DNA from: Gammaproteobacteria bacterium
GTDB taxonomy: Bacteria > Pseudomonadota > Gammaproteobacteria > GCA-001735895
NCBI GenBank assembly: GCA_050288105.1
Contig: JBNKDE010000001.1
Span: 16,097 to 80,096 of the forward strand
Direction: 5' to 3'
DNA: 64,000 nt
Shown: positions 1,504-22,396 of the stretch, one piece after another
Numbering within the stretch: position 1 is the first letter of the stretch
Layout: every line of letters begins with the position of its first letter
Notes under the pieces: model-generated
What the model was told of the DNA's origin: nothing
The model's database searches: none
What the model saw: only the letters and a program-made list of their open reading frames with translations
Made by a program: the position numbers and the translations under genes

Positions 1504-3754
1504 CCCGATAAGCAACGCACTAACCCAGCTCACCGCCTACGGCCTGCAGCTCGATCAGTTTGAATGCGATGGCAAGCTGCGGCGCGTAAAAACCACCGAT
1601 GATAAAGGCAGTAAAAAATCAGGCTGGTACGTGGCGCATGAGTTTACCCTGGATTCTGGCCGCACGGTGATTACCGGCAGGTTCGGTAACTGGAAGGTCA
1701 GTGATGAACCGCAGGAATTTAAGTTTGATGCCACTTTCACTGAGAGTGAAAAAGCGGCATTCAAAGCGAAGCAGGAAGCGCAGCGCCAGGCGGCAGCTAA
1801 AGAAAAACGCGCCAGACAAAAGCAGGCCGCCGCTAGAGCTGAAAAGTCATGGCCTAATTTGCCGAAAGAGGGTCATAGCGATTACCTGGCACGCAAGAAG
1901 ATATACGGCTTTGTGTGCCGCTATTCTCGCGGCTGGATTGCCATACCGTTATACAAAAATAATAAGCTGGTCGGGTTGCAGTGGATTAAACCCGATGGTG
2001 AAAAAATCTTTTTAACCGGCACTGAGAAAGAGGGTGCTAGTACCATTATTCAACAGGGCAGTGATGATCTGCCACGGATCTTATGCGAGGGATATTCAAC
2101 AGGCTGTAGCCTCGCGATGGCGAAGCCTGAACACACCGTGGAGGCTTGCCACGATGCAGGCAACCTGCTGGTTGTAGCGAAGGCTTATATCAAATCAAAA
2201 ATACCGTTTATGGTGGCTGCTGATAACGATCACCAGCTGGCGGTGCGGCGTCCAGACATTGGCAACAAAGGCATCAACATTGCGCGCGAGATTCAGCGCC
2301 TGTCACCTAAAACCCCGATCTACTGGCCTGATTTTCTGCCTGAAGACTCTGGATCTGATTTCAATGACTTACACGTTTCAAAATCGCTGGACGCAGTCAG
2401 GGAGATATTCAATCGGCGCGAGCCGCAGGCTTTGGTTTCCGAAGATAGCCAGGATAATGGTTTTAATGAGCTTTGTCCGCCTTTTGAAGGTGAGCAAGTA
2501 GATGATGATCCGCCCCCCGATCCTGATTGGCAACTGAGGCTAACCAAGGTTAAGTCACGTGGTGGGCCACTAAAGATTGAAGGGACGGCCAGCAACATCG
2601 CGTTGATATTCGAGCATGACCCTGAGTTTTCAAAGGCTCTGTCTTACTGTGATTTCAGTTACCGAATTATAAAGCGCCGTGAGATTATGCCTCAGGTTAC
2701 TGATGGTGAGTGGATTGATAGTGATACCAGTGCTGCCTTGATCTGGATGGCTAGAAAATACGGTTTTGAACCTTCAGATCCTAAGCTTGCTCATGCGTTA
2801 GTTAATGTGGCAAAGCACAACCGTTTTCACCCGGTGCGTGATTACCTGGAGAATGTTGTTTGGGATAAAAAGGAAAGGTTGGCGAATTGGCTGGCTGATG
2901 TTTATGAATCTGATGCACCGCCAGATTACCTGGCTGCTGCTGGAAAAAAGTTTTTGATAGGCGCTGTGGCACGAATATTCAGGCCTGGCTGCAAAATGGA
3001 TAACGTGCTGATATTGGAAGGTGAGCAGGGCTTACGTAAGTCTACCAGTGTCCATAAGCTGTTTGGTGAGTGGTTTAGTGACTCACCTATTCCCCTGGGT
3101 GATAAGGACAGCTATCAAAATATTCAGGGTATCTGGTGTCACGAACTCGCGGAGCTTGATAGCTTCAACAAAGCAGAGAGTACAACCGCTAAAAACTTTT
3201 TCACCCAGACTCGTGATCGATATCGGCCAAGCTATGGACATAGGGCAGAGGATTTTCCTCGTCAGACGGTTTTCGTCGGCACCACTAATCAAGATGAGTA
3301 CCTAAAAGATTACACCGGGAATCGGCGTTATTGGCCTGTTAAGTGTCGCATTGCAAACCTGGAATTGATTGAAGCTTATCGTGATCAATATTGGGCTGAA
3401 GCAGTTCATCTGTACAAACAAGGTGCCACCTGGTGGATTGAATCTGAAGCGGAGCGCCAGCTTTTCGAGGCTGAGCAAGACAGCCGGTTACAAGTTGATC
3501 CATGGCAGTACCATATTGAGCGCTATCTTACTAAGGATGCAGGTGAGTATGTAACCAGCGCAGAAATATTATCAGACGCCATCAAGAAAGATGCCGGTCA
3601 TGTTACTAAGGCTGATCAAAATCGTATCAGTCCAATCATGCAGGCAATCGGATGGAAGCATAAGAAGAAAAGGATCTGGGTTGGTACAGAAAAGCTGCCG
3701 CGCTGGGTTTACGTGAGGCCTGAAAAACCGTCGAAAGTGGGGGAATTAGAATGA
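1496..3754 (+). CDS. P4-type bifunctional DNA primase/helicase
   Basis: 752 aa with a Walker A P-loop (EGEQGLRKST) in the C-terminal half and an N-terminal primase-like region, the P4 alpha/D5-like architecture. Confidence 0.8.
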   Translation: MTDPISNALTQLTAYGLQLDQFECDGKLRRVKTTDDKGSKKSGWYVAHEFTLDSGRTVITGRFGNWKVSDEPQEFKFDATFTESEKAAFKAKQEAQRQAAAKEKRARQKQAAARAEKSWPNLPKEGHSDYLARKKIYGFVCRYSRGWIAIPLYKNNKLVGLQWIKPDGEKIFLTGTEKEGASTIIQQGSDDLPRILCEGYSTGCSLAMAKPEHTVEACHDAGNLLVVAKAYIKSKIPFMVAADNDHQLAVRRPDIGNKGINIAREIQRLSPKTPIYWPDFLPEDSGSDFNDLHVSKSLDAVREIFNRREPQALVSEDSQDNGFNELCPPFEGEQVDDDPPPDPDWQLRLTKVKSRGGPLKIEGTASNIALIFEHDPEFSKALSYCDFSYRIIKRREIMPQVTDGEWIDSDTSAALIWMARKYGFEPSDPKLAHALVNVAKHNRFHPVRDYLENVVWDKKERLANWLADVYESDAPPDYLAAAGKKFLIGAVARIFRPGCKMDNVLILEGEQGLRKSTSVHKLFGEWFSDSPIPLGDKDSYQNIQGIWCHELAELDSFNKAESTTAKNFFTQTRDRYRPSYGHRAEDFPRQTVFVGTTNQDEYLKDYTGNRRYWPVKCRIANLELIEAYRDQYWAEAVHLYKQGATWWIESEAERQLFEAEQDSRLQVDPWQYHIERYLTKDAGEYVTSAEILSDAIKKDAGHVTKADQNRISPIMQAIGWKHKKKRIWVGTEKLPRWVYVRPEKPSKVGELE

Positions 3755-4963: not shown

Positions 4964-5581
4964 TTGTGGAGGCACTTTACTTTCATGACACAAGACAAAA
5001 GTAGCAAAGTCGATAAACCAGATTTATCAGCAAATATCACCAGTCAGGCCGTTACAGCTGTCGAGTTCGCTGAGTACGTTGGATTGACCGTTCAGCGTGT
5101 CCATCAACTGGTTTCCAATAAAATTTTGCGTAAAGCTGCGCGCGGGGCGTTCGACCTGAAGCCGTGTGTACATGACTACTGCAAGTATCTGCGTGACAAG
5201 TCTGGCGGGTCTGATGGCGCTCAAAGTGAGCGTGAGGCGAGGGTGCGATTGCTTGAAGTGAAAGCGGACATTGCCGAGCTGGAACACCTCGAAAAAGCGA
5301 GGGTGATGATTAACGGTGAAGTCCGCAAAAAACAGGATTCTGCATTAGCGGTGATTCTGCAAAACAACCTGCTGTCGATGGCGGACCGGCTGTCACCAGA
5401 GCTGGCCGCTGAAACTGATGCGGTTGCTATACACAAGCAAATTACTGCAGAGGTCAGGAACAGTTTGAATTCTGTGATAACGGATATGGAGTCCACCGAG
5501 GTTGATGATGCCACGATGGATATTGTGCGGCGTGATTCGCTGCAGGCTTATGAGCAAAACAGCAAAAGTGATGTTTCTTGA
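4964..5581 (+). CDS. Terminase small subunit (Nu1-like, N-terminal HTH)
   Basis: Sits directly upstream of the large terminase. N-terminal HTH-like segment and a coiled, charged middle region like lambda Nu1. Confidence 0.5.
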   Translation: MWRHFTFMTQDKSSKVDKPDLSANITSQAVTAVEFAEYVGLTVQRVHQLVSNKILRKAARGAFDLKPCVHDYCKYLRDKSGGSDGAQSEREARVRLLEVKADIAELEHLEKARVMINGEVRKKQDSALAVILQNNLLSMADRLSPELAAETDAVAIHKQITAEVRNSLNSVITDMESTEVDDATMDIVRRDSLQAYEQNSKSDVS

Positions 5582-6333: not shown

Positions 6334-6519
6334 ATGGCGAAAGTAGAACTAAAAATAAACATAAAAGATGCATTAGAAAAAATAGAAAAACTGAATACTG
6401 AAGTCGATAAATTCAAAATCGCAATGTTTCAGGCGAGGATTGCTGCAAATGGCACCGCAAAAGCTATGCATGATTTTGTCGAAGCTTGCAATAACATTGA
6501 TATCGATTTAAAGCAGTAA
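6334..6519 (+). CDS. Small coiled-coil protein (part of the AT-rich moron)
   Basis: 61-aa ORF with the same AT-rich composition, co-oriented and tightly spaced. Confidence 0.35.
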   Translation: MAKVELKINIKDALEKIEKLNTEVDKFKIAMFQARIAANGTAKAMHDFVEACNNIDIDLKQ

Positions 6520-6522
6520 AAA

Positions 6523-8490
6523 ATGCTCCTCTCCGAAGCTCTCCCTGGTTGGTACGAAGGCTTAAAACCTAAGCCCGAATTAACCGTGTCAGAGTGGGCG
6601 GATGCGAAACGAGTTTTAAATCAACGGTCCTCTGCAGAGAGTGGGGCTTGGCGTACCAGCCGAGCGCCATTCACTAAAGATATTATGGATGATTTAAGCG
6701 TGCACAGTTCAGTTGGTGAAGTTTCTGTGATGAAAGGCGTTCAAATTGCTGGTACTGAAAGTGGTAATAATTTTATAGGTTACATTATCGATCATGCGCC
6801 TGGTCCCTGGATGGTTGTGCAGCCGACGGTTGATATGGGCAAACGTTGGAGTCGCCAGCGCTTGGGTCCGATGATTGAAGACATGCCTTGCTTGTCAGAA
6901 AAAATAAAACCTTCGCGCAGCCGTGATAGTGGTAATACGACTTTGTCAAAGGAGTTTGATGGTGGGCTAGGCATTATCACTGGCGCAAATAGTGCTTCTG
7001 GACTTCGGTCGATGCCTGCAAAATATTTAATGAAAGATGAGCTGGATGCATGGCCTATTGATGTCGATAAAGAAGGCGATCCTAGCGAAATCGTTGATGC
7101 GCGCACAACAACATTTAGTCGTAGTAAAATTTTAAATATCAGCACGCCCACCGATAAAGCAACCAGCCGCATCTGGCGAAAGTACAAGGAAGGTGATCAG
7201 CGTAAGTATCATGTTCCTTGCCCACATTGCAAAGAGCTGCAGGTTTTGAATTTAAAATCTTTGGTGTGGGAGAAGGACGAAAACGGCGACGCGGATCCTG
7301 ATAGCGTGCAGGCTGTTTGTGAACACTGCGGCGCTATGATTCCGGAGTATCACAAAACCTGGATGCTGGCCAATGGTAAATGGATCCCGACTGGCCCGCG
7401 CAATGATCGGCATCACAGTTATCATCTGCCTAGTTATTATTCCCCGCTCGGCTGGATGAGTTGGGCTGACATTGTTCGCAAGTTTATAAAATCAGAAAAA
7501 AGCCGCGAGCTCCTGCAGGTGTTTACCAACCTGGTGGATGGCCTGCCATTTGAAGATAAAACCGAGCATGTTGATGCCAGCTACCTGCAGGAACGTGCCG
7601 AAGCCTATGCGCTGGGAAAATGTTACCTGGGTGATTTAATATTAACGGCTGGCGTTGATACGCAGCCAGATCGATTTGAGATCGAAGTGTGGGCGCATGG
7701 CATGAATCACTCGCGCGTTATCGATTATCAGGTGATCTGGGGCGACCCTGAAGACCGTGAAACGCGCAGCCAGTTAGATGACGCGCTGGCATTACGCTAC
7801 CCGCACGAATCAGGTGTCGAGTTAAAGATAGCAGCTGCGGGCATAGATTCAGGCGGGCATAATACGCAAACCATTTATAATTTTTGCCGTACTCGCAAGC
7901 GCCGCCAGATTTTCGCGTTAAAAGGTTACAGCCAGCGCTGGAAACCTATCATCGGCAAGCCAACTAAAGTGGATGTTTCTGTATCAGGCAGGACCATCAA
8001 AAATGGTGCTGATCTGTGGATGGTTGGATCTGATACCGCCAAAAAGCATATATACACCCGCCTGGCGAAAACGGATCCTGAAAAGGATGGTTATATCTAT
8101 CTAAGCAAGGAGCTGAACAAGGAATTTTTTGACGGCCTGACCAGTGAGCGCATATCGACCCGATACGTAAAAGGGTTTCCGGTTAAGGAGTTTGTCAAGG
8201 ATCCGTCAGTGCGCAACGAGCCGCTGGACTGCGCCGCGTATGCAATCTGCGCGTATTACAAGCTTGGGCTCAACCGCTGGCGGGCAGCGCAATGGAAACA
8301 GTTAGAAGAAAAAGTGCAGCCAGTCACAAAGGATCTATTCGCCGAAGCTGACGGCGACGAAGGTGCGCCCGCGGATCCAGAAGAGCCACCGCGAACCGCT
8401 ACAAAAAAATCAAAGTCAATCCGTAAACGGCGTAGGGTTGGCCGTGGTGGTTTTGTTAACGCAGGAATGTCCGGAGGAACAGGTGTCTGA
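6523..8490 (+). CDS. Terminase large subunit (lambda GpA family)
   Basis: 655 aa, the size and organisation of lambda gpA (N-terminal ATPase plus C-terminal nuclease); sits in the packaging module. Confidence 0.85.
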   Translation: MLLSEALPGWYEGLKPKPELTVSEWADAKRVLNQRSSAESGAWRTSRAPFTKDIMDDLSVHSSVGEVSVMKGVQIAGTESGNNFIGYIIDHAPGPWMVVQPTVDMGKRWSRQRLGPMIEDMPCLSEKIKPSRSRDSGNTTLSKEFDGGLGIITGANSASGLRSMPAKYLMKDELDAWPIDVDKEGDPSEIVDARTTTFSRSKILNISTPTDKATSRIWRKYKEGDQRKYHVPCPHCKELQVLNLKSLVWEKDENGDADPDSVQAVCEHCGAMIPEYHKTWMLANGKWIPTGPRNDRHHSYHLPSYYSPLGWMSWADIVRKFIKSEKSRELLQVFTNLVDGLPFEDKTEHVDASYLQERAEAYALGKCYLGDLILTAGVDTQPDRFEIEVWAHGMNHSRVIDYQVIWGDPEDRETRSQLDDALALRYPHESGVELKIAAAGIDSGGHNTQTIYNFCRTRKRRQIFALKGYSQRWKPIIGKPTKVDVSVSGRTIKNGADLWMVGSDTAKKHIYTRLAKTDPEKDGYIYLSKELNKEFFDGLTSERISTRYVKGFPVKEFVKDPSVRNEPLDCAAYAICAYYKLGLNRWRAAQWKQLEEKVQPVTKDLFAEADGDEGAPADPEEPPRTATKKSKSIRKRRRVGRGGFVNAGMSGGTGV

Positions 8491-8770
8491 TATCGAAAAC
8501 GATGATGATTTTGTGGAGAGCGTAGGCAGTATGATCGATTACTACATGGATCTACGAGGTAACCCGCCTGAAGATTGCCAGGCGCTGGCCAAAGCGGTCA
8601 TGCAAAGCATTCGCGAACGGTATCAAGGGGAGCGCGTTACTATCAGAAAACGTACGTCATCAATAAAGCGACAAATACGCGCTGAGTTTAACGGCCAGAA
8701 TATTGAAGAAATCATGCATCGATACGGTGTTAGCAGGGCAACGGTTTATCGGTATCTAGGCCGAAAGTAA
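8483..8770 (+). CDS. Mor/C-family late transcription activator
   Basis: The C-terminal segment ...IRAEFNGQNIEEIMHRYGVSRATVYRYLGRK closely parallels Mu Mor (...IWNDFNGRNVSELTTRYGVTFNTVYKAIRR). RBS GGAGGA lies ahead of GTG 8483. In the +1 frame relative to the terminase gene. Confidence 0.55.
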   Translation: MSDIENDDDFVESVGSMIDYYMDLRGNPPEDCQALAKAVMQSIRERYQGERVTIRKRTSSIKRQIRAEFNGQNIEEIMHRYGVSRATVYRYLGRK

Positions 8771-8824
8771 ATAATCTCAAAACTGGCAGCACCTGAGACA
8801 ATCGCCCGCTAATCTGCGGGCATG
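8768..8824 (+). repeat. 57-bp element, copy 1, identical to 13462-13518; ends at a start codon and contains hairpin GCCCGC-taatct-GCGGGC
   Basis: Exact sequence identity with the second copy, read directly from the sequence. Confidence 0.85.
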
Positions 8825-9253
8825 AAAATATTATCTTTCCTACCGCCGCGAGGTTCTGACGACTGGGGATCCGGTGAGTTCGGCGCAGCGCGTGGCAATC
8901 ATAAACACCGAGGTATCGATCTCGCGTGTTACCCCCAAACTGAAATTATGTCGCCTGTAGGCGGCAAGGTCACAAAACTGGGTTATCCCTATGCGGACGA
9001 CTTAAGTTATCGCTATGTTGAGATCGAGGATAGCAACAGCTACAAGCACCGATTTTTTTATGTTCAGCCACTGGTTGAAGTGGGTGAACTTGTTACACAT
9101 GGCGATGTTATCGGTCATGCGCAAGACATAGCCAGCCGCTATACCCGCCATAAAATTCTCGACGGCGAAATTGTTTCGCAAGTCATGAAAAACCATGTTC
9201 ACTATGAAATATTGGACAAAGGCGCGCCCATTGATCCGGGGAGGTTTGTATAG
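8822..9253 (+). CDS. Peptidase M23 family protein (putative endolysin or virion peptidoglycan hydrolase)
   Basis: HRGID (HxxxD) and NHVHYE (HxH) metal-binding motifs typical of M23/LytM peptidases. Confidence 0.55.
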   Translation: MKILSFLPPRGSDDWGSGEFGAARGNHKHRGIDLACYPQTEIMSPVGGKVTKLGYPYADDLSYRYVEIEDSNSYKHRFFYVQPLVEVGELVTHGDVIGHAQDIASRYTRHKILDGEIVSQVMKNHVHYEILDKGAPIDPGRFV

Positions 9254-9780
9254 TGAGTTGGCAGGATATCGTTAAAAGTGTTGCGCCCGTTATTGGTACT
9301 GCTCTGGGTGGTCCATTAGGTGGCATGGCAACCAAAGCAATCAGCTCAGCCCTATTCGGTGATGATGAACCACTAGAAGGCTCAGCGCTTGAAAAGAAGA
9401 TTGCGGCTGCCGTCACTGGTGATCCGGAAGCACTGCTGAAAATTAAGCAGGCCGATCAGGCATTCGAAACCAAAATGGCAGAGCTTGGGATTGATCTTGA
9501 AAAAATCGCGGCTGAAGATCGCCAGAACGCCCGCAATCTCGCCATCAATACTACTTTAGCCCCTCAATTGATTATTGCTTCTCTCTTTATCATTGGTTTT
9601 ATCGCGGTGCTCTACACGGTGTTTAAAGGTGACATAGCTATGACAGAGCAGCAGAGTAATATTGCCATGTACCTGCTTGGTATTTTGTCTGCAGGGATTG
9701 TGCAGATCATGAATTTCTTTTTCGGCTCCAGTGCTGGCAGCAAGGAGAAAACGCACAAACTATCTGCAGTAGTCAGGTGA
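9253..9780 (+). CDS. Putative holin (3TM / GTA-holin-like)
   Basis: Gly-rich N-terminal segment MSWQDIVKSVAPVIGTALGGPLGG, with hydrophobic transmembrane segments in the C-terminal half. Adjacent to the peptidase. Confidence 0.4.
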   Translation: MSWQDIVKSVAPVIGTALGGPLGGMATKAISSALFGDDEPLEGSALEKKIAAAVTGDPEALLKIKQADQAFETKMAELGIDLEKIAAEDRQNARNLAINTTLAPQLIIASLFIIGFIAVLYTVFKGDIAMTEQQSNIAMYLLGILSAGIVQIMNFFFGSSAGSKEKTHKLSAVVR

Positions 9781-9784
9781 AACG

Positions 9785-10279
9785 ATGGTTGAAGATTTAA
9801 CAACAGATCATTTAATCGATGATGATCCATCTTTGACGAAAATGAATCGCCGGTTTAATGACCATGTACGCATTGTTAGCACAAGGTTTGGCCAGTTACG
9901 CGATGTTATCCAGCACAACACAGAAACGGTCGAAAGCTTAAACGCTAGATTCGAGTTGCATGATGTGCAAGAAGTTGAATTTCGCGAGGACATTACCAGC
10001 ATGGTGCAGGGTTGGGTCAATGTCACCCACGAGTTAGCGCACGGGATTAAAGAGCTGGGCGAAGAAACGCGCGAACTACGCAAAGATATTGCCGCGCAAC
10101 AGTTAGTCATTACGCCGATACAAAAGGGTTTGAACTGGTTTCAGGTCACTAAAGTTATTTTGGCCTGGTTGTCAGCAATTGGTGCTGGGATTATGACTGC
10201 AGTCGGGTTAATAGTTTTTATTTTAAAGCTGGCGGGACCGAGCATTATCGGTTTGATAACGCCGATTATGGGGCCATAG
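9785..10279 (+). CDS. Hypothetical protein with a C-terminal transmembrane region
   Basis: ORF whose C-terminus is hydrophobic (ILAWLSAIGAGIMTAVGLIVFILKL). Confidence 0.4.
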   Translation: MVEDLTTDHLIDDDPSLTKMNRRFNDHVRIVSTRFGQLRDVIQHNTETVESLNARFELHDVQEVEFREDITSMVQGWVNVTHELAHGIKELGEETRELRKDIAAQQLVITPIQKGLNWFQVTKVILAWLSAIGAGIMTAVGLIVFILKLAGPSIIGLITPIMGP

Positions 10280-10281
10280 AA

Positions 10282-10629
10282 ATGCAAGCATACATCAACT
10301 GGTTTATTACGCATCCAGTACTCGCATTCATCCTGCTATTTATTCAATACGCCGTGTTGATGACCTATCAGAGCAGGCTGAAAAATAGCGCTTTAGGAAA
10401 ACCGTTATTCCTGTGGTTTATCTGGCAGGATTGGCTGATGAATTTCATGATGACTTTTTTGTTTCTGGATCCACCTGGTAATTTAACTGAAGTCGTCACG
10501 GGCAGGATGGAGCGATATAAATCTACTTTTTCGACATTACGACCAATCACCTGGTTAGATAAATTTCAGTATGGATTTGCAGTGAGGCTTTGCAAAATCC
10601 TAAATCGATTCGATGAGAATCATTGTTAA
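10282..10629 (+). CDS. Hypothetical membrane protein
   Basis: ORF with two hydrophobic segments. Confidence 0.4.
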   Translation: MQAYINWFITHPVLAFILLFIQYAVLMTYQSRLKNSALGKPLFLWFIWQDWLMNFMMTFLFLDPPGNLTEVVTGRMERYKSTFSTLRPITWLDKFQYGFAVRLCKILNRFDENHC

Positions 10630-10646
10630 TTAACGAGGGTTAAACC

Positions 10647-11015
10647 ATGGGTAAATATGTAAACGATGCGTTACTTGATGCTGATCACAATGAATGCATC
10701 AACAACGCCAATCAAATCCACGTCTGTGCCGCTGAACCGACTACGCGCACGGAGGCGGTCACTACCAACAACCTGGCGTCGGGTGCTTTAACCAGTGGGG
10801 ATTTTACGCTGGCCAATGGCGACACATCCGGTCGTAAGATGACTACTGCTGCTCAGACCGGCTTGAGTATTACCTCATCTGGAACGGGTGATCATGTGGC
10901 GATCACTGACGCAACACGTCTACTGATTGTAACCACCTGCACAGGTCAGGTGCTGACATCTGGCGGCACGGTAGACACTGCCGCGTTTGACCGTGAAATT
11001 CTTGATGCTGCTTAA
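10647..11015 (+). CDS. Hypothetical protein (Thr/Gly-rich)
   Basis: ORF preceded by an RBS (gagggttaaacc ATG). Confidence 0.35.
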   Translation: MGKYVNDALLDADHNECINNANQIHVCAAEPTTRTEAVTTNNLASGALTSGDFTLANGDTSGRKMTTAAQTGLSITSSGTGDHVAITDATRLLIVTTCTGQVLTSGGTVDTAAFDREILDAA

Positions 11016-11277
11016 GGAGCAACTAAAATGAAAATTGAAATTACTGAAGAAGTTATAAAGCTGAATGTTGGTGGAAAGCTGCAGGTTTACAACAAAGGTG
11101 ACGTAGTCACTGTCGAAGACCCGATCGGCGAGCTGTGCTGTCAACATGGTTGGGGACTGGATGTGGATGGTGCTGTTCCAAGCAATGAGCGCAAACCGGG
11201 TGCCAATGGAAAGGTTGTGCCTGATAACGTGGTGACTAAACAGGCTTAGTTTTTAGATCATTAACTGGAGAAATAAC

Positions 11278-11619
11278 ATGAAATACTTGATTTTACTTTT
11301 AGCGCTATTCAGCTTTAGCGCTTTGGCTGATGTAACCGCAACATGGACACCTGGTGCACCAGTTCAAGGCGCAGATGTTCAAGGTTTTAACTGGTACTAC
11401 GGTGATTCAGCAGGAAACGTGCAACAGAATGTAATTAACATTCCTGACCCTAATTCGACAAGTCATACAACCACGGTTATTCCTGATGGTGTTTGGTATG
11501 CTGGGATAACGGCTTACGCAACGAATGAAAGCCCGATGTCTGAAATCGTGCCATTTACTGTTGTAGGGGGTGTAGTAGTAAAAAGCCCAAACGTCCCTAC
11601 GGGCTTCAGTTTGCAGTAG
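11278..11619 (+). CDS. Secreted hypothetical protein (signal peptide)
   Basis: N-terminal MKYLILLLALFSFSALA signal peptide, with RBS ggagaaataac ahead of the start. Confidence 0.45.
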   Translation: MKYLILLLALFSFSALADVTATWTPGAPVQGADVQGFNWYYGDSAGNVQQNVINIPDPNSTSHTTTVIPDGVWYAGITAYATNESPMSEIVPFTVVGGVVVKSPNVPTGFSLQ

Positions 11620-11636
11620 CTGAGCCCGCTTCTCCT

Positions 11637-13148
11637 GTGACAGAATTTACGTTCGACGGAACCGCCGGAACCCCGCTTGATACATACGATGCAGGGTTTC
11701 AAGGAACGTGGGAGCTTAATGGCTCAGGCGGGTCACTGCCTACCTCTGTATGGTCTCCGCAGTCAGAGTATTACACAGCCGGAACAGATCAGAATTCACA
11801 TAGCAGAATAGTCATCGGTGATGGATCTCTTGGAGCAGGTGGCTTTATACGTGTCGGTGTTCGGATGGGCGCATCAACGACCGGCTATGAAGCTTATTTG
11901 AACTCAGCAACATCTATAATAATATCAAGAGACGGGACATACTACGACACAATAGTATTATCAAATAGCTATGCGGTAGCCGCAGGGCTGATACTAGACG
12001 TGTATATTAATGGGTCTAATGAACCTGAAGTCTATATCGATGATGGTGTCAATTCTGAAACAAGCACGGCATCAGCTGATCAGGCACCGATCACTGGCGG
12101 GTACCCCGGTTTTAGGGAGTATGCTGCCGGAGCAGGGATGGCTATTGAAACGTGGAGCGATGGTGCTGGTAGCGGGTCCGCATCTATAACACCAGATGAT
12201 CTATCGCATTCACAGTCTCTGTCAGCGTCCTCATTTACTCAGCATAATAGCCTGGCTCCAAATGCTATTGATCATACTCAAACCTTAGGTGCGAGCGCGC
12301 TAACTCAACACAATAGCCTAACCCTGGACGCTATCGATCATAGCCAAACACTAGATTCCAGTGGTTTAACCGTTTCTGGTGGCGTTACTCCAGATCCAGT
12401 CACGCATTCACAAACTGTGGATGCATCTGCGCTAATACAGCATCATTCAATAATCGCAGCTGATTTATTGCACGGCCAAACCCTGGCAGTCAGCGCGCTA
12501 ACTCAACATTCAGTCATCGCGCCTGATGCTATTGAGCAATCGCAAACCCTTGATGCATCCGCGCTCATTCAGCACCATGCCGTAATCGTCAACGACATCA
12601 CGCATTCAGTGACGATGAGCAGTAGCGGGTTAACACAGCACAACGTGGTTGCGCCGGATGATATCGAACAGGCACAGGTGCTGGATATCTCAGCCATCGT
12701 GACCGCTGGCACTCTGTCCCCTGACAAGCTGACACATGCACAAACTATCGATGCATCAGTATTAACGCAGCATCATTCCATCGCAGTCGACAACCTGCTG
12801 CATACTGTAGTGCTGGATAGCACGTCCCTGGTCTCGCATTACGCGGTTAATCCAGACGATATCACGCACGCTAGCACGCTATCTGTCACAACAATCAGCG
12901 CATCAAATGCCCTGCAGCCGGATAATATCAATCACGCGCAATCACTCGATGTCACTGTGTTAACCCAGCATTATGTGATTAACCCTGACGCGTTGACTCA
13001 TGCGCAATTGTTGGATGCTACGTTAATTGATAACGGATTAACCCCAGACATCATCCAGATCGTCAGCAGCGAGTTCACTATCATCCGCAGCCTGGCCAGC
13101 AATCACAACATCAAACGCACTCTGACCCAGACAGGTAAATTATCATGA
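11637..13148 (+). CDS. Tandem-repeat protein: N-terminal lectin/jelly-roll-like domain followed by about 16 repeats of a 19-aa unit (xLTQHxxxxPDxIxHxQxLDAS)
   Basis: The 19-aa periodicity is visible in the translation and the matching 57-bp DNA periodicity across about 12180-13060. Possible non-ATG (GTG) start. Confidence 0.55.
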   Translation: MTEFTFDGTAGTPLDTYDAGFQGTWELNGSGGSLPTSVWSPQSEYYTAGTDQNSHSRIVIGDGSLGAGGFIRVGVRMGASTTGYEAYLNSATSIIISRDGTYYDTIVLSNSYAVAAGLILDVYINGSNEPEVYIDDGVNSETSTASADQAPITGGYPGFREYAAGAGMAIETWSDGAGSGSASITPDDLSHSQSLSASSFTQHNSLAPNAIDHTQTLGASALTQHNSLTLDAIDHSQTLDSSGLTVSGGVTPDPVTHSQTVDASALIQHHSIIAADLLHGQTLAVSALTQHSVIAPDAIEQSQTLDASALIQHHAVIVNDITHSVTMSSSGLTQHNVVAPDDIEQAQVLDISAIVTAGTLSPDKLTHAQTIDASVLTQHHSIAVDNLLHTVVLDSTSLVSHYAVNPDDITHASTLSVTTISASNALQPDNINHAQSLDVTVLTQHYVINPDALTHAQLLDATLIDNGLTPDIIQIVSSEFTIIRSLASNHNIKRTLTQTGKLS

Positions 13149-13468
13149 CCGACGACATCACGATATCGCACACCATCAGCCTGAGCGATGAGGGCACAGA
13201 TTTTCAATCGATCATCATGGAAGAAGGCGCGGTCGTTGACATCAGCACATCAACCGAGCAGGCGATTATTTTAAAAGATCCGGATGGCGTCGACAGTGTA
13301 AAAATTGGCGAGCTAGTCAATGATGGCACTGACGGTCTGCTGCACTATACCCGCCAATCTGACGATATCTCACAGCTCGGTATCTGGGCTTATCGTGGCC
13401 GTGTAAAATTCGGAGCTGGAAAAACATTCCACGCGATCAACTGGGTTTATTTTGAAGTGATTAAATAA
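13145..13468 (+). CDS. Hypothetical protein
   Basis: ORF overlapping the preceding stop codon by 4 nt. Confidence 0.4.
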   Translation: MTDDITISHTISLSDEGTDFQSIIMEEGAVVDISTSTEQAIILKDPDGVDSVKIGELVNDGTDGLLHYTRQSDDISQLGIWAYRGRVKFGAGKTFHAINWVYFEVIK

Positions 13469-13518
13469 TCTCAAAACTGGCAGCACCTGAGACAATCGCC
13501 CGCTAATCTGCGGGCATG
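13462..13518 (+). repeat. 57-bp element, copy 2, identical to 8768-8824
   Basis: Exact sequence identity with copy 1; ends at the ATG of ORF 13516. Confidence 0.85.
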
Positions 13519-14109
13519 AGCAACGCTTTTGATACCACTAACGCGCCGACGACTGAGCCGGTAGAAATTATCGCCGGTGATTACACCACCTGGCGGCGCA
13601 CTGATTTATCAACCGACTATCCACCTGCAGAATATACCTTGAGCTATGAAGCTCGCAGCGAAGGCACACCAGCACGTCGCATCACCATCGAAGCAGCCGA
13701 AAGCAACGGTGATTACCTGGTTGAGCTAACCAGTGCCACTACGCTCGGATACCTGGTCGCAAACTATCATTGGGACGCCTTTATTATCCGCAACAGTGAT
13801 ACCAATCGCGTTCGTATCGATAGTGGCATGTGGTCAGTGCTGGCTGACAAAGCCACCAGCGCAGATGACCCTGCCACCTTTGCTAAAAAAATGCTCAACC
13901 AGATCGAAGCCGCGTTATTACATCGAGCAACCAATCAACAACTCGACGTGCTCGCCTACAGCTTAAACATTGATGTCAGTGCCACGCGGGATCCCGCAAA
14001 GCTGTTAGAGCATCGGGCCTATTGGCAGCGTAAATTAGTTATAGCAAACCGCAAGATAAGAGCGCGCAAGGGTCAAAGTCATAGCGGATACCGCAGGGTG
14101 AGATTTTAA
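13516..14109 (+). CDS. Hypothetical phage head-assembly-region protein
   Basis: ORF between repeat copy 2 and the portal gene. Confidence 0.4.
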   Translation: MSNAFDTTNAPTTEPVEIIAGDYTTWRRTDLSTDYPPAEYTLSYEARSEGTPARRITIEAAESNGDYLVELTSATTLGYLVANYHWDAFIIRNSDTNRVRIDSGMWSVLADKATSADDPATFAKKMLNQIEAALLHRATNQQLDVLAYSLNIDVSATRDPAKLLEHRAYWQRKLVIANRKIRARKGQSHSGYRRVRF

Positions 14110-15629
14110 TGGCTGGTTTTCAAATAGTTGATGGTAAATGGCACCACGCGCCAGTCGCAAGGAAATCTCGTTCGCGCGGAACCATGCCAGCCTTAAGGCG
14201 TTCTTTTGCTGCTGGAAAGGTCGATGATTTAACCTATTCATTCAGTGGCAGTCATAACCATATTAACGAAGAGTTGCGCCAAAGCCTGCGCCGTATTCGG
14301 GCGCGTTCTCGTCAGTTATGTATGGATAACGACTATGCAAAAAAATTCATACATGTTGTTAAAGCTAATGTGGTTGGTGTTAACGGCATAGTGCTGCAAT
14401 CGCGTGCCGTTGACGCAAAAGGTGACCTGGACACCTATGACAACAACCTGATAGAAAACGGTTGGAAAGACTGGGGCAAGCCATATAACTGTACCGTGTC
14501 TGGCCAGCATAGCTGGCACGATGTTCAATCACTCATTATCGGCAGTATCGCGCGTGATGGTGAGGTACTGGTCCAGCTGATTGAAAAAGCATCAGCGCCT
14601 TATGGTTTTGTACTGCGTATTTTCCCCGCTGAATATCTTGATGAAAACGACAACCGCACATTGCCTGGCGGGCATAAAGTCGTCATGGGTGTGGAATATG
14701 ACGCCGATGAAATGGTGGTTGCTTATCACATCAGAAAAGAGCATCCAGGAGCTTATCGCAACGTATACCGTAGCACTGAGTATCGGCGTATCTCGGCAAA
14801 AAACATGATTCACCTGTTTGTTTCTGAATACCCTGAACAGGCTCGCGGCATTCCTTGGATGCATACTGCCATCAGGCGCTTAAATATGCTTGGCGGATAT
14901 GAAGAAGCTGAACTTATCGCAGCCAGAATCGGTGCCTCAAAAATGGGTTTTTTCACCAGCCCAGAAGGCGACGGGCCAACACCATCACAGATGGCACCAG
15001 ACGGAATGGACGGTAATGATCATGAACTGATTGACGAAGTGACGCCAGGTATGATTGAAAACCTACCTGAAGGTTATGGGTTTCAGTCATTCAATGCTGA
15101 TCATCCATCAACCGCATACGACGCTTTTACAAAAGCTGTTTTGCGCGGTGCGACTGCTGGCCTGAATGTGGCTTATTCATCGGTGGCGAATGATCTGACT
15201 GACGTTAATTTTTCCAGTATACGTGCCGGAGTAATCGACGAGCGTGATCAATGGAAAATGCTACATAGATTCATGATAACGCATCTATGTGAGCGCGTTT
15301 ATAACAGATGGTTACCGATGGCTATCATGCGCAAAAAACTGCCATTGCCATTCAAAAAAATCGACACCAAATATCAGAGTATTTACTGGCAGCCGCGCGG
15401 CTGGCCCTGGGTTGATCCATATAAGGACTCGAAAGCAAACAGCGAAAATATATCGATGGCTGTAGATACGCGCACCGATATCGCGGCTGCCAGTGGAAAA
15501 GATTTTAAAGATGTAATTGACCAGCTTGCCTATGAAGAAAAACTCGCTGCTGCTGCTGGTGTAGATATCACCCCAATCGGAAAACAATCAGGAGGCAACA
15601 ATGCCGCAGACTTACAGCAAGACGATTGA
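14109..15629 (+). CDS. Portal protein (lambda gpB family)
   Basis: 506 aa, sited after the terminase and before the protease-capsid gene; size and residue pattern match lambda-type portals. Confidence 0.8.
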   Translation: MAGFQIVDGKWHHAPVARKSRSRGTMPALRRSFAAGKVDDLTYSFSGSHNHINEELRQSLRRIRARSRQLCMDNDYAKKFIHVVKANVVGVNGIVLQSRAVDAKGDLDTYDNNLIENGWKDWGKPYNCTVSGQHSWHDVQSLIIGSIARDGEVLVQLIEKASAPYGFVLRIFPAEYLDENDNRTLPGGHKVVMGVEYDADEMVVAYHIRKEHPGAYRNVYRSTEYRRISAKNMIHLFVSEYPEQARGIPWMHTAIRRLNMLGGYEEAELIAARIGASKMGFFTSPEGDGPTPSQMAPDGMDGNDHELIDEVTPGMIENLPEGYGFQSFNADHPSTAYDAFTKAVLRGATAGLNVAYSSVANDLTDVNFSSIRAGVIDERDQWKMLHRFMITHLCERVYNRWLPMAIMRKKLPLPFKKIDTKYQSIYWQPRGWPWVDPYKDSKANSENISMAVDTRTDIAAASGKDFKDVIDQLAYEEKLAAAAGVDITPIGKQSGGNNAADLQQDD

Positions 15630-17412
15630 AACAGGCTTTGAATATCGCAGCCTGAAGATTGATCAACGATCAATCGACGAAGAAGCCAGAACCGTGGAAG
15701 TCGCGTTTTCATCAGAAGACCCGGTCGACCGTTGGTTCGGTAAAGAAATTCTCGATCACTCTCCATCATCTGTTCGCCTGGGGAGGCTGAACAATGGTGG
15801 CCCGATCTTGATGGACCATGACCGCCGTGACCACGTGGGGGTTGTTGAGTCCGCGACCATTGAAAGTGACCGCAAGGGGCGGGCGCTTGTGCGCTTTGGT
15901 AAGAGTGCACGCGCAATGGAAGCATTCCAGGACGTGGTCGACCGTATCCGTAAGCACGTATCGGTTGGATATCGAATCCATAAGATTGTGCTGGAAGAAG
16001 AAAACGATAAAGAAGGCGAGATCTACCGCGCGACAGACTGGGAACCATACGAAATCAGTTTTGTATCTGTTCCTGCTGATGCAACGGTGGGTGTTGGTCG
16101 TTCAACTGAAACAAAATTTAAAACCGAGGTAATTATGCCAAAGAATCAACAACCGGCACCTGGCTCCGAAGAAAACCGCCAGTCCGCCCCTGCGGCACCA
16201 GCACCATCGATTGATGTATCGGCGGAAGTTGAAAAACGAGCCAGAGCAGAGCTGGACCGTATCGACACTATTCGCAAGATGGGTGACAAATACGAATGCG
16301 CGGATCTGGCGCGCCAGCATATCGACGACAAAAAGTCCGCTGATGAAATGACGCGCGCAGTACTCGCGTTAATTGCTGAACGTCAAAAAGAAGAAAAGCC
16401 AACCACGCAAATTGGCCTTTCTGGTCGCGAAACTCAGGAATATAGCCTGATGCGCGCCATGCGAGCGTTGGCAACCAATGACTGGTCAAAAGCCGGTTTC
16501 GAGCGTGAGGCCAGCCTGGCCATTGCCGACGCACTAGGCAAAGAGGCGCGCGGATTTTTCGTCCCTTATGAAATCCAGTCTCGTGTAATGACTACCGGCG
16601 TAGCTGCTGACGGTGGCAACCTGGTGGGCACTGATCACATGGCAGGATCATTCATTGATTTTCTGTACGCCAATTCAGTGCTCGGTAAGCTGAACGCTAT
16701 CTTTCTGGAAGGCCTGGTCGGTGATATCGACATTCCTCGCCTTGATGGCGGTGGTGCCTTTACCTGGGTCGCTGAAGATGGTGACGGAACCGATGATGAT
16801 GGTGTACTGGGTACAGTGGCCATGTCACCACATACCATTGCAGGCGCTGTGCCTATCTCTCGCAGACTGCTGAAGCAATCTTCTCCTAGTGTAGAGGCAA
16901 TGATTCAGCGTCACCTGGGCCGCAACGCAGGTCTTGCAATAGACCTGGGCGGACTACAGGGCACAGGCGCATCAAACCAGCCCACAGGTATCAGCCAGAC
17001 CACTGGCGTTGGCACCGTGACCATTGCCAGCGCAGGCTCACCGACCTGGGCGGAGCTGGTCGAGTTCGAAACCGATGTGGCTACCGCTAATGGCCTGGAT
17101 GGTTCCACAGCTTACGTCACTACAGCTGGTGTGCGCGGCAACCTGAAAACCACCAAAAAGGATGCAGGCTCTGGCATTTTCTTGATGGAAAAGGGAGAGG
17201 CAAACGGTCATCCAGTCGAGATCAGCAACCAGCTGGCAGCCAACAGCATTATCTTTGGAAACTATCAGGATGTTGTTATTGGTATGTGGGGAGTGCTCGA
17301 CCTGGTGGCAGATACGGCCACTAAAGCCGCCTCTGGTGGACTAGTGTTACGTGCTTTTCAGGATGTCGATGTCGGCATCGCGCACGCTGGCTCGTTCAGC
17401 GTTAACGCTTAA
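15601..17412 (+). CDS. Prohead protease fused to an HK97-family major capsid protein
   Basis: 603 aa. The C-terminal half (...GTDHMAGSFIDFLYANSVLGKLN...TVAMSPHTIAGAVPISRRLL...) is HK97-capsid-like; the N-terminal roughly 180 aa are protease-like. Confidence 0.75.
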   Translation: MPQTYSKTIETGFEYRSLKIDQRSIDEEARTVEVAFSSEDPVDRWFGKEILDHSPSSVRLGRLNNGGPILMDHDRRDHVGVVESATIESDRKGRALVRFGKSARAMEAFQDVVDRIRKHVSVGYRIHKIVLEEENDKEGEIYRATDWEPYEISFVSVPADATVGVGRSTETKFKTEVIMPKNQQPAPGSEENRQSAPAAPAPSIDVSAEVEKRARAELDRIDTIRKMGDKYECADLARQHIDDKKSADEMTRAVLALIAERQKEEKPTTQIGLSGRETQEYSLMRAMRALATNDWSKAGFEREASLAIADALGKEARGFFVPYEIQSRVMTTGVAADGGNLVGTDHMAGSFIDFLYANSVLGKLNAIFLEGLVGDIDIPRLDGGGAFTWVAEDGDGTDDDGVLGTVAMSPHTIAGAVPISRRLLKQSSPSVEAMIQRHLGRNAGLAIDLGGLQGTGASNQPTGISQTTGVGTVTIASAGSPTWAELVEFETDVATANGLDGSTAYVTTAGVRGNLKTTKKDAGSGIFLMEKGEANGHPVEISNQLAANSIIFGNYQDVVIGMWGVLDLVADTATKAASGGLVLRAFQDVDVGIAHAGSFSVNA

Positions 17413-17509
17413 TTCTTAGAAAAGCAGGTTTCTCAGGAAACAGAGTGCAGTACTAACCCGCTGGCCGGTTAACGCCGGTCAGCAATTAACAAAATTAAGA
17501 GGCAATAAA

Positions 17510-17866
17510 ATGTCAGACGAAGCAAAAAAGAAAATGAAAATCATCCTGACCCGTGGCTGTGTGATTGACGGTGAAAAGGTAAAAGCTTTTACCGCTTGTA
17601 CCGTGAGTCGCGGTGACGCTATTTCTATGATCAATGCAAAACGCGCAGTTGAAGACAACGCCGACAACCGCAAGGTTATTGATGATATGAAAAAGGAAGC
17701 AGCGAAAGCAGCAAAGGCTGAAGCAGCGAAAGCTGCGGCAGCTGATGCAACGGTTGAAGAACTTGAATCATCTCTTGAGCGCGCCCTGGATGAGCTCGCA
17801 TCATTTAAGGAAAGGCTCGAAGCGGCAGAAACGGAACTGGCGGCATCAAAAGGCGATAGCAAATAA
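17510..17866 (+). CDS. Hypothetical head protein with an Ala/Lys/Glu-rich coiled coil
   Basis: ORF with a good RBS (aagaggcaataaa ATG). Confidence 0.4.
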   Translation: MSDEAKKKMKIILTRGCVIDGEKVKAFTACTVSRGDAISMINAKRAVEDNADNRKVIDDMKKEAAKAAKAEAAKAAAADATVEELESSLERALDELASFKERLEAAETELAASKGDSK

Positions 17867-18148
17867 ATGCCAGCCCAAACGCAACAAGATTTTGCAAACC
17901 TCGTAGACGGCAGTGATTTTACAACTGCCGTCTATACAGGCGCTAACATCGAGCTATCCGGCATCCTGAGCCGTGGCCCTGGTGGCGCGTTAGACGTTAA
18001 CGACAACCGTCTACGCCTGATGCTGGTGCGTGAAGATGCTGACAAGGTCGCTATCGGCTCAACCATCACGGTAGCAGGCAACTTTTATACCGTGCGCGAA
18101 AAAGAACCGGGTGACCGTGCTGTCACGCTGGTGCTGGAGGCAGATTAA
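17867..18148 (+). CDS. Hypothetical head-tail connector-region protein
   Basis: ORF tightly coupled to its neighbours. Confidence 0.35.
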   Translation: MPAQTQQDFANLVDGSDFTTAVYTGANIELSGILSRGPGGALDVNDNRLRLMLVREDADKVAIGSTITVAGNFYTVREKEPGDRAVTLVLEAD

Positions 18149-18672
18149 CTATGTGCTCTATTGATCAAAACACACTTTATGAAGCATTGGGCGAAATTGT
18201 TAACCGCATCGAAGCGTGTGGCGCTTCACCTGAATTAACCGATGCGGTGTCCTTAGCCAGCGATTTACGGCAAGCAGTTGGAAACGATTTCAATCCAGCA
18301 GATTCATTTGCATTTGATCGCGTATTTAATGTCCTGGCTGAGGAAAGAGCCGGATAAATTTAATAACTGATTAATTTTTTTTAGGGTAATTATTATGGCT
18401 TGGTTTATACAACCTAATCAAATTGCAGACAAGGACGGCAACGGCACAGGCCGCTGGAGAATGACAGCGACAAGTGATGAAGATGGTGGTGGTCCTTATG
18501 GCGATGTAACACATGATCACGGCTCTGCAGAAGAGGCGATGGAATGTGATCTCTGTGATGAGTACACAAGTAAGGTGTCAGGATTCCCAACAAGAAAGGC
18601 ACAGGCAGAAGCTGAGGAAGCTCGTGACCGTGCGGAATATGAACGCCTTAAAACAAAATATGAGAGCTAACC

Positions 18673-19107
18673 ATGCATAGACGCGAAACCATACTACAGA
18701 CCGTTTTAACCTTGCTGACTGGCCTGGCAACAACCGGCAGCAACGTAAAGCGTGCCAGAGCGTATAAACCTGACGTACTGCCCGCATTAAGCATTGCACA
18801 AGGCCCTGATGTGCTCTCGCCAGAACATGCCTACCTGGGCGATATCATGCGCCAGCTTACCGTACGGATCGCGGCACACGTCCAGGACACCACCAACCTG
18901 GAAACAGAGCTCAACCAGATCAGTGCAGAAGTCTATGCCGCCTTGACTGCAGATCGTAGCCTGGGCCTCGACTATGTCTTTGACCTAAACATAGAGTCAG
19001 ATTCAGATCCAGAGATCGAAGGTGGTGAAACACAACAGCCTGTTGGCCGTTTGGTCATGGAATACAACCTGATTTATGAACACAGCGACACGTCGGCGGA
19101 GGCGTAA
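18673..19107 (+). CDS. Hypothetical head-tail adaptor-region protein
   Basis: ORF in the structural block. Confidence 0.35.
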   Translation: MHRRETILQTVLTLLTGLATTGSNVKRARAYKPDVLPALSIAQGPDVLSPEHAYLGDIMRQLTVRIAAHVQDTTNLETELNQISAEVYAALTADRSLGLDYVFDLNIESDSDPEIEGGETQQPVGRLVMEYNLIYEHSDTSAEA

Positions 19108-19267
19108 CTCATGAATGTTGAAATGTGGCACCCAGAGGCCGACCCGGAATATAAGCATCCAATCCTTGTGCGCCCTGGTGGCGTCGAGGCAATGAAACTA
19201 AAAGGCTGGACGGACGAAAAACCGGAGCCAGAACAAACAACTGAAACCGTAAAAGAGGGTAAAGAAA

Positions 19268-19660
19268 ATGGCTAAAGTAGTTGGTCGTAATGGAGTTTTA
19301 AAAATTGGTGCTGTTACCGTTGCAGGCCTTAAGTCAATCTCAGAAAGCGAAAGCTGTGAAGCGATTGATGATTCAGAACTTGGTGATCAGGAATTGACCT
19401 ATGTCGCCGGTGATATCACTCGAAACTATACGGCAGAGCTGCATTGGGATAAAGCTGATGCAACTGGGCAGGGCGCGCTTGAAATTGGTGCAACAGTGAC
19501 TGCAGTTTATCAGCCTGAAGGTGATGCCTCAGGTGCGGAAACAAATTCTATAAGCGCTTTGGTGACAAACCTTGGCCGCGCTAATGAAAAGGGTTCGATG
19601 GTAACAAAGACTGCCACTCTGTTGGGATCCGGCGCTAAAACTGTCGGTGCGGTGGTTTAA
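19268..19660 (+). CDS. Putative major tail protein
   Basis: 130-aa ORF upstream of the chaperone-like and tape-measure genes; assigned by position. Confidence 0.4.
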   Translation: MAKVVGRNGVLKIGAVTVAGLKSISESESCEAIDDSELGDQELTYVAGDITRNYTAELHWDKADATGQGALEIGATVTAVYQPEGDASGAETNSISALVTNLGRANEKGSMVTKTATLLGSGAKTVGAVV

Positions 19661-19663
19661 TCA

Positions 19664-20029
19664 ATGAACATTGCAGAAATCGGCGCGCGTCATTTGGCTA
19701 ATGCGCTATCTGGTGAAATGCATCATTGTACAGTCACAGAATGGCGTGATAACGAAGGTAAACCTGTCAAGGTTTACTGGAAGCCAGTGACAGGTAGCCA
19801 GCAATCAATTATTGACAGCGCCAGTGGTGAAGTAAACCGGACTTGCATGACGGTGAAGGAACGCGCATTAAATGCTGATGGCTCAAAAATATTTAAGGAT
19901 AACAGCCTTGCCTCGCTAAATAACGATTATGACTATGACGTAATCCGCACGTTGGCGCTGGTGATTTCTGGTGACATTGGTTACAGCAGTTTCACAGAAA
20001 AAGCAATTGAAGAAATGGAAAAGGAGTAA
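19664..20029 (+). CDS. Putative tail assembly chaperone
   Basis: Lies between the major tail and tape-measure genes. Confidence 0.35.
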   Translation: MNIAEIGARHLANALSGEMHHCTVTEWRDNEGKPVKVYWKPVTGSQQSIIDSASGEVNRTCMTVKERALNADGSKIFKDNSLASLNNDYDYDVIRTLALVISGDIGYSSFTEKAIEEMEKE

Positions 20030-20174
20030 AAGACGATGCGCTGTTATTCCTGGCTTATGAATATGCGGGGTACATTGGCCAGAGCGTATCAACCGTGCGT
20101 GATTTACCCGTTGCAGAGCTTGTCGGCTATGCCGCTTATAAAAAAATAGTGCTTGAATCAATATCGGAATAATT

Positions 20175-21278: not shown

Positions 21279-21281
21279 CCT

Positions 21282-22055: not shown

Positions 22056-22393
22056 TGAACAACGAGTGGTTAAAAGGCGTTAAGCCTGGTGATGTAATCA
22101 CAGCAGAAATGCTGAATCGCATGACCAAAGCAATCAACGCCAACACCCGAGCAGTCAGCGGCCCTAAACAAAAAACCAACCTGGATGCAGCGGCACAGCC
22201 TGGCGTTGGCACCAGTGGCGGGGCTGCAATTGGCGATGAGGTATTCACAGCAGGCCCTGCGGATATCACCAGCACAACAGTTAACATAACTGATGATGCG
22301 GGAGACATTGTCCCGGTCGAGCGCGTTGATAATATTGTATTTACCGAGACCACCAGCGGGCGAACCATGACGCTGTCAATCACATACGTTTAA
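22055..22393 (+). CDS. Hypothetical tail protein
   Basis: ORF overlapping the preceding stop codon. Confidence 0.35.
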   Translation: MNNEWLKGVKPGDVITAEMLNRMTKAINANTRAVSGPKQKTNLDAAAQPGVGTSGGAAIGDEVFTAGPADITSTTVNITDDAGDIVPVERVDNIVFTETTSGRTMTLSITYV

Positions 22394-22396
22394 AAC

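Follow-up and report, generated by a model that had tools for sequence, protein, structure and literature searches.

The late promoters of phages P2 and P4 depend on Ogr/Delta and carry a TGT-N12-ACA dyad near -55. Leaderless mRNAs of temperate phages and transposons include those of lambda cI, transcribed from PRM, and of Tn1721 tetR, and the known leaderless cases in Gammaproteobacteria are regulatory genes expressed at low level. In phage Mu, the promoters activated by Mor or C possess a -10 hexamer and no -35 hexamer, together with a 16-bp dyad (5-bp arms, 6-bp spacer) that is centred at -43.5 and bound by a Mor or C dimer (PMC2582627, PMC4390567). Here we analyse a pair of identical 58-bp repeats in a 64-kb stretch of gammaproteobacterial DNA (contig JBNKDE010000001.1, positions 16,097 to 80,096; hereafter the window, whose numbering is used unless another contig is named) that carries the right-hand 24 kb of a marine prophage. 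From the comparison with related loci we consider it fairly probable that the repeats are two copies of an activator-dependent late promoter; a leaderless start and dependence on the Mor-like protein encoded next to the first copy each seem somewhat less probable than that.

The repeat pair and the predicted late promoter

The element, TAAATAATCTCAAAACTGGCAGCACCTGAGACAATCGCCCGCTAATCTGCGGGCATGA, is a perfect direct repeat of 58 bp that occurs at 8768-8825 and 13462-13519 with zero mismatches (0 matches in 100 shuffles as the chance expectation), and no third copy was found at up to 3 mismatches in the 64 kb. An initial annotation of this DNA had reported a perfect 57-bp repeat; the repeat is real and in fact one base longer, each copy ending in ATGA. 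As also reported there, both copies run into the ATG of the next gene, which encodes an M23 peptidase (8822) in one case and a 197-aa protein at the position of W (13516) in the other. The claim that the copies begin at a stop codon holds for copy 1, whose first bases are the TAA (8768-8770) of the Mor-type gene said to end there, but not for copy 2, which begins at 13462, 4 nt 5' of the TAA (13466-13468) of ORF (open reading frame) 13145-13468. An assembly artefact was ruled out, since an independent Logan assembly contig (L001; L002 to L100 below are contigs of relatives) is broken within copy 2, which is the usual behaviour of assemblers at repeats, and since relatives carry equivalent paired elements. 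Searches for an exact 42-mer of the repeat in GTDB representative genomes, for megablast matches of 6500-15700 in phage records and in E. coli genomes, and for Rfam 15 covariance-model hits overlapping either copy (E up to 10) returned nothing.

Copy 1 (60.3 bits with model R1) is the predicted late promoter P1 of a lysis/accessory operon, and copy 2 (64.8 bits) the predicted late promoter P2 of a head-tail operon; both copies, with all of their parts, and the genes of both operons lie on the plus strand. Operon 1, referred to below as the cassette (8822-13468), consists of the M23 peptidase gene (8822-9253; Peptidase_M23 match) followed by eight further ORFs (9253-13468), namely one for a phrog_1544 protein, six without family matches and a conserved last gene of 107 aa. 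Operon 2 (13516-24099) reaches the prophage end and encodes the W-like head-tail joining protein (13516-14109), the portal, a protease-capsid fusion, head-tail connectors, the tape measure and distal tail proteins. Run over 568 kb of related loci, a structure-aware element model gave no matches other than these intergenic copies, every one of them on the coding strand; two of the matches lie in the window, and the model found no additional copy downstream within operon 2.

We aligned 15 distinct elements (alignment A4) on the ATG, counting its A as +1, and drew the per-position base tally from 17 listed elements. An A-tract at about -55 to -49 (8768-8774 in copy 1) is followed by the dyad TCTCA-N14-TGAGA (8775-8798; copy 2: 13469-13492), centred 35.5 nt before the A of the ATG, which is the predicted site of an activator dimer. 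This pattern occurs only twice in the window and twice in each of L008 and L009. The general form of the dyad is GT-NNN-A...T-NNN-AC, its centre lies 35.5-38 nt before the ATG in every relative with a clear dyad, irrespective of arm sequence, and ACA is invariant 3' of the right arm. Further downstream stands a -10-like hexamer, TAATCT (8810-8815; copy 2: 13504-13509), of which A(-11) and T(-7) are invariant in 15 of 15 distinct elements while its versions include TAATCT, TAGTCT, TAGACT, TATCCT, TAACCT, TATTGT, CATTAT, CACACT and GATAGT. In all 15 the hexamer, at -12 to -7, is followed by exactly 6 nt, mostly G/C, and then by the ATG; G(-14) and C(-8) are each kept in 14 of the 17 tallied elements. 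Positions -13, -10 and -3 carry almost no information, being essentially random, so that the invariance of A(-11) and T(-7) is attributed to selection rather than to a recent shared ancestor.

In four copies of relatives the dyad is followed, at the usual distance, by a TAnnnT hexamer behind which no ATG stands directly (TATACT in copy 1 of L008, TATTTT in copy 1 of L009, TAACCT in copy 1 of L010 and TAGGGT in copy 2 of L093), indicating that the hexamer belongs with the dyad rather than with the start codon. Two of these leadered copies (L008, L010) have a clear Shine-Dalgarno (SD) sequence before the downstream gene. The -35 region is GGCAGC-like without a TTGACA match, and a scan for two-hexamer sigma70 promoters was empty across the repeat. 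A sigma54 promoter, suggested by TGGCAG in the dyad spacer, was rejected because the GG and GC elements do not have the -24/-12 spacing in the window and miss it by one in L091.

Both start codons appear to be genuine, as judged from the conserved N-termini of their products: the 31 proteins of the W-like family start with MSNxFD, with M1 nearly invariant and N3 and F5 invariant, and the alignment of M23 peptidases from two relatives starts at M1. The predicted energy of the duplex with the anti-SD sequence is -2.5 kcal/mol at both 8822 and 13516, against -6 to -12 kcal/mol for most other genes of the prophage. Other prophage genes without an SD sequence are few and mostly overlap the preceding gene or lie within a few nt of it, and the genes at 8822 and 13516 are the first after gaps of 51 nt and 47 nt.

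The initial annotation also noted a 6-bp stem, GCCCGC/GCGGGC, abutting the ATG without an SD sequence, and we confirmed this at both copies. The hairpin GCCCGC-TAATCT-GCGGGC (8804-8821; copy 2: 13498-13515) holds the hexamer in its loop, and its 3' arm (8816-8821) forms the 6-nt G+C-rich discriminator between the -10-like hexamer and the start. This ATG-proximal hairpin is not conserved, with 41% of cells paired across the 15 relatives' elements and a weak or absent stem in L008, L010, L014 and L093. As far as the comparison goes, it is a lineage-specific inverted repeat bracketing the -10-like hexamer and not part of the functional core; that it might mask the AUG in read-through RNA is speculation. 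For annotation, the conspicuous hairpin and the perfect repeat would be secondary, the conserved signal being dyad, hexamer, 6 nt and ATG. An intrinsic terminator was rejected, as the hairpin is followed by ATGA and no U-run, and a terminator scan lists none in the repeat.

The gene that ends in copy 1 (8483-8770, plus strand; 95 aa; GTG start, SD GGAGGA) overlaps the TGA of the large terminase gene. Its assignment to the Mor/C family of activators was borne out by a match to PF08765 Mor (30.5 bits, cut-off 24.9); the PHROG annotation of the product is late transcriptional activator (E 3.4e-8), and helix-turn-helix (HTH) matches fall at residues 70-92. Homologues in L009, L093 and L066 (4.3e-14 in L066) also match the Mor family. 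The Mor gene directly follows that of the large terminase (TerL) in L002, L008, L009, L010 and L093, and one small ORF stands between the two in L066. In six lineages a Mor-family gene is present in the TerL-to-W interval, upstream of the element.

We propose that the Mor-family protein (8483-8770) is made together with the terminase and that its dimer would bind the dyad and recruit host RNA polymerase to a sigma70-type promoter without a -35 hexamer. The dyad, centred about 36 bp before the start, would stand in for that hexamer together with the upstream A-tract; TAATCT at -12 to -7, with G at -14, would act as the -10 hexamer, followed by the 6-nt G+C-rich discriminator and by the A of the ATG as +1. 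With A8822 (7 nt after the hexamer) and A13516 as first nucleotides, the mRNAs would open directly on AUG and be leaderless, which would explain why both genes have no SD sequence. Copy 1 would switch on the lysis/accessory operon (8822-13468), and copy 2 the head-tail operon from 13516 to about 24100. A duplicated Mor-dependent late promoter or leader had been one of three readings in the initial annotation and is favoured by the comparative data, whereas its details change: the -10-like hexamer is TAATCT, 6 nt before the ATG, which predicts no leader. The 'ataat' at the 5' end, which had been put forward as a -10, is conserved only as an A-tract (AAATAA, AAAAAAG or AAATAG in relatives), and TAAATAAT was rejected as a -10 or T4-late-like box on the same grounds.

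Equivalent elements in relatives

Homologues of the W-like protein with 42-72% identity were found in uncultured relatives from marine metagenomes, and the closest matches in cultured phages were Roseobacter CRP phages (32-35% identity). The Mor-like protein gave no tblastn match in cultured phages and only 3 matches in a word-indexed homologue search; single-protein scans with the W-like and Mor-like proteins against viral contigs, and with the W-like protein against genome contigs, gave no match.

In L002 to L007 the gene order is TerL, Mor, an M15 peptidase in place of M23, about nine genes, W and portal, and a perfect 64-bp direct repeat occupies the same two positions, with a different sequence and the same build as that of the window. 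The element is present three times in L093 and twice in each of L008, L009 and L010; L091/L092, L094 and L066 have a single copy before W, and most of the block is absent from them. The last cassette gene (107 aa) nevertheless has a homologue right before W both in L002 (E 5e-33) and in L091 (E 6e-15), which lacks the cassette. The content of the block varies among relatives, with an M23 or an M15 peptidase and from 5 to 13 genes.

The two copies are 100% identical within the window and within L002, and the identity falls to 87% in L093 (copy 1 versus copy 3), 82% in L009, 67% in L008 and 60% in L010; between genomes the elements are 57-77% identical. Since identity within a genome can be as low as 60-67%, it is not itself under selection; where a pair is perfectly identical, this reflects duplication or gene conversion that happened recently in that lineage, and function does not require it. 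The 58-bp direct repeat could also allow rare deletion of the cassette.

These comparisons bear on a further reading of the initial annotation, in which the repeats were recombination scars of a modular insertion. As stated it was not supported, because elements of the same build stand at the same places in relatives. Relatives do show two copies at the same positions with a syntenic block between them, but the block is variable and encodes lysis and accessory functions, not the core head genes whose presence had been named as a test. Relatives with one copy and most of the block missing, a state that the initial annotation had suggested looking for, also exist, but they retain the last cassette gene. 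Taken together, the same-build elements and this retained gene indicate that the repeats are marks of operon starts at a mosaic hot-spot and not insertion scars, as far as sequence comparison can tell.

More distant relatives have a canonical TTGACA-N16/17-TAcAtT promoter and an SD leader at the same place before W, indicating that a promoter at this place is the norm of the family. In L093 the W element is separated from the preceding gene by a GC-rich hairpin, AAAGCAGGC-TTTG-GCCTGCTTT, followed by seven T (9910-9937), which resembles an intrinsic terminator dividing the two late transcription units in a terminator-then-promoter layout.

Of the 15 aligned elements, 11-14 retain each of the six core dyad pairs; at each of the three inner pairs four changes affect both sides, giving the arm types TCTCA/TGAGA, TGCAA/TTGCA, TAAAA/TTTTA and TGAC/GTCA. 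Such changes would fit a dimeric DNA-binding protein co-evolving with its sites, and equally a nucleic-acid stem. In L066 the dyad TGTGAC/GTCACA coincides with a different Mor recognition helix, LTRRHIYR against SRATVYR; this co-variation of helix and arms is suggestive, with two classes only. The two elements of L010 differ in kind: copy 1, after the Mor gene (2886-2945), has the dyad TTGTCC...GAGACA, and copy 2, before W (6999-7058), has a perfect 11-bp palindrome, GTGCAACCAAC/GTTGGTTGCAC, of the GTGCAA/TTGCAC type. The presence of both dyad types in one genome points to promoter swapping by recombination.

Weighing the alternatives

Several observations count against a Mor-dependent leaderless promoter. 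TAATCT agrees with TATAAT at 3 of 6 positions only, and leaderless mRNAs are uncommon in Gammaproteobacteria. The dyad does not have the geometry known from Mu: it spans 24-25 bp with arms 14-15 bp apart and is centred 35.5-38 nt before the predicted +1, so that with a centre at about -36 its promoter-proximal half-site would occupy -28 to -24, an unusual place for an activator. The two arm types within L010 are awkward for a single sequence-specific activator, and in L010, L018, L094 and L060 the dyads extend to perfect palindromes of 9-11 bp, as a nucleic-acid stem would. L091/L092 and L094 carry the element but, as far as their contigs were sequenced, no Mor gene, and the M23 gene behind the leadered copy of L009 also has no clear SD sequence.

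Some of these points would suit an RNA-level element acting in a long read-through transcript of the terminase operon, in which the dyad stem and the stem abutting the AUG would control translation from the SD-less AUG, the processing or the stability of the RNA, or antitermination as at nut or put sites. Both copies are predicted to fold into two hairpins (-17.3 kcal/mol; z = -3.0 and -1.7), the covariation of the dyad arms reached a score matched by 0 of 500 shuffles, one arm position in L002 forms a U-G pair, and the long perfect stems of some relatives and the two arm types of L010 fit as well. We nonetheless regard this explanation as unlikely, because the hairpin next to the AUG is poorly conserved, stem 1 has just 5 bp with a 14-nt loop in the window, neither stem is followed by a U-run, so that it is not an intrinsic terminator, and no Rfam family matches; moreover, an RNA element leaves the invariant A(-11) and T(-7) and the fixed 6-nt gap unexplained and does not account for the constant hexamer spacing in the leadered copies, and a terminator-like hairpin stands just upstream of the element in L093. 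The translational control structure offered in the initial annotation is weakly supported for the same reason of hairpin conservation. Quite unlikely, in our view, is that the promoter region is the same but its -10 is GACAAT (8797-8802), with a start near 8809, an SD-less leader of about 13 nt whose 5' end would be stabilised by the GC hairpin at its beginning, and a dyad that overlaps the core promoter and would be an operator. GACAAT matches TATAAT at 4 of 6 positions, its ACA is the invariant one and an xACAAT motif occurs in about 10 of 15 elements; yet the T at its sixth position is missing in L018, L095, L010/L100 and L008, its distance to the ATG varies from 15 to 19 nt, no consistent -35 hexamer stands at 16-18 bp, and the SD-less translation start stays unexplained. 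Copy 1 of L008 (GACAAA) and of L010 (GACAAC), both leadered, lack this -10 and yet have good TAnnCT hexamers downstream.

The repeats could also have been left by, or serve as substrate for, a modular insertion or excision of the 4.7-kb cassette, by homologous recombination or by site-specific recombination through an HTH_7-type protein, with no regulatory role needed. They do bracket, perfectly in the window, a block of variable content; relatives that lack the block have only one copy, L010 is chimeric at its second copy, and identity within the window and L002 exceeds that between genomes. Still, the functional anatomy of the element is conserved while its sequence diverges, even between the copies of L008 and of L010, no recombinase domain is encoded between 6523 and 17412 (the Mor-like protein has only its HTH), and the last cassette gene, kept by cassette-less relatives, means that the repeats do not delimit a mobile unit. 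We therefore consider a purely recombinational origin very unlikely; recombination would be compatible with the promoter as a side effect and does not replace promoter function. Returning to the activator-dependent late promoter, the broader proposal that an uncultured marine lineage of temperate siphoviruses runs both late operons from Mor-type leaderless promoters with a wide dyad at -36 and swappable symmetric arms is a tentative one, which we think may well not hold in full. Swappable symmetric arms, if they are such, would hint that shape or a DNA hairpin, and not base sequence, is recognised.

Surroundings of the element and known systems

Upstream of the Mor-like gene the prophage encodes a cII-like protein (267-722), a primase-helicase (1496-3754), a small terminase (4964-5581) and a gpA-type large terminase (6523-8490; TGA stop 8488-8490), and the gene behind W is that of a lambda-type portal (14109-15629). 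The protease-capsid fusion that follows (15601-17412) combines a prohead protease (Peptidase_S78) and the major capsid protein in a single 603-aa ORF, and the fusion is kept in all close relatives. Within the cassette, ORF 11637-13148 encodes a 503-aa protein without a family match and contains four diverged 32-nt cores (12279-12574) at a spacing of 66 or 132 bp, i.e., 22-aa repeats; equivalent large proteins with repeats of 66-bp period are found in relatives (8006-9469 in L002). The end of a cassette gene in L002 and L003 holds a perfect 19-bp tandem duplication of AAGCACACTCATAAATACT (6480-6517 in L002). The last large protein of the tail region (ORF 22397-23710; 437 aa, no Pfam match) is encoded with at least seven diverged 72-bp (24-aa) tandem repeats at 22741-23304, and the proteins at its position in L010 and L092 have DUF285 and LRR_5 matches.

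A tRNA-Leu(CAG) gene on the minus strand (24216-24302) marks the junction of prophage and host and probably served as attachment site; the integrase must be encoded to the left of the window. Host rnr (RNase R) and rlmB (RlmB-type methylase) follow at 24416-27450. The DnaB of the bacterium shares 88% identity with that of metagenome-assembled Gammaproteobacteria. Beside rlmB, in host DNA, a 448-aa reverse transcriptase ORF (27617-28963; RVT_1, E 3.9e-25) precedes a 103-aa ORF, and could belong to a retron, a group II intron or a defence-associated reverse transcriptase. Further along, on the minus strand, genes for an RtcB RNA ligase and a Band 7/SPFH protein (30177-33219) adjoin a tRNA cluster, Met(CAT)-Leu(TAG)-Lys(CTT), at 32874-33219.

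If the proposed promoter is correct, the element would pack a Mor-family activator site, a minimal -10 and a leaderless start into a compact, portable switch for late genes, about 58 bp long. It would then offer a natural gammaproteobacterial case in which late operons, beyond regulatory genes, have a leaderless first cistron, would bear on leaderless translation outside actinobacteria and archaea and would widen the known promoter geometries of Mor/C activators. Should the promoter prediction fail, the element, being conserved, would still mark the boundaries of operons in phages of a group without a cultured member.

The system resembles the Mor/C system of Mu in having a small phage-encoded HTH activator of the Mor/C family, several late promoters per genome, a -10 without a -35 and an imperfect dyad overlapping the -35 region. 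The A/T-rich stretch upstream of the dyad is comparable to the partial UP element of Mu Pm (PMC2582627, PMC4390567). The same sources do not describe the middle and late transcripts of Mu as leaderless, a difference from the starts predicted here (PMC2582627, PMC4390567). Unlike Mu, a transposable phage, the prophage analysed here is a lambda-like siphovirus with a gpA terminase and a lambda-type portal, and its activator gene lies behind the large terminase. As in P2 and P4, each late operon would have its own copy of an activator-dependent promoter, and the partial dyad has the outer bases (T)GT...ACA; the activator, by contrast, is an HTH Mor-like protein and not a zinc-finger Ogr, and the spacing and position of the dyad differ, and we claim no membership in that group.

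In the literature searched on leaderless phage late promoters, no activator-dependent leaderless late promoter of this kind was found. The closest likeness in this respect is to the leaderless mRNAs of lambda cI and Tn1721 tetR, with which the element shares a -10 hexamer 6-7 nt upstream of the ATG, an ATG that is +1 (predicted here) and no SD sequence. Unlike those cases, the genes predicted to be leaderless here are the first ones of both late operons, for lysis and for morphogenesis, in an arrangement conserved across a phage lineage. Judged by its sequence and that of its relatives, the repeat is thus most likely an ordinary kind of element with an unusual, leaderless design.

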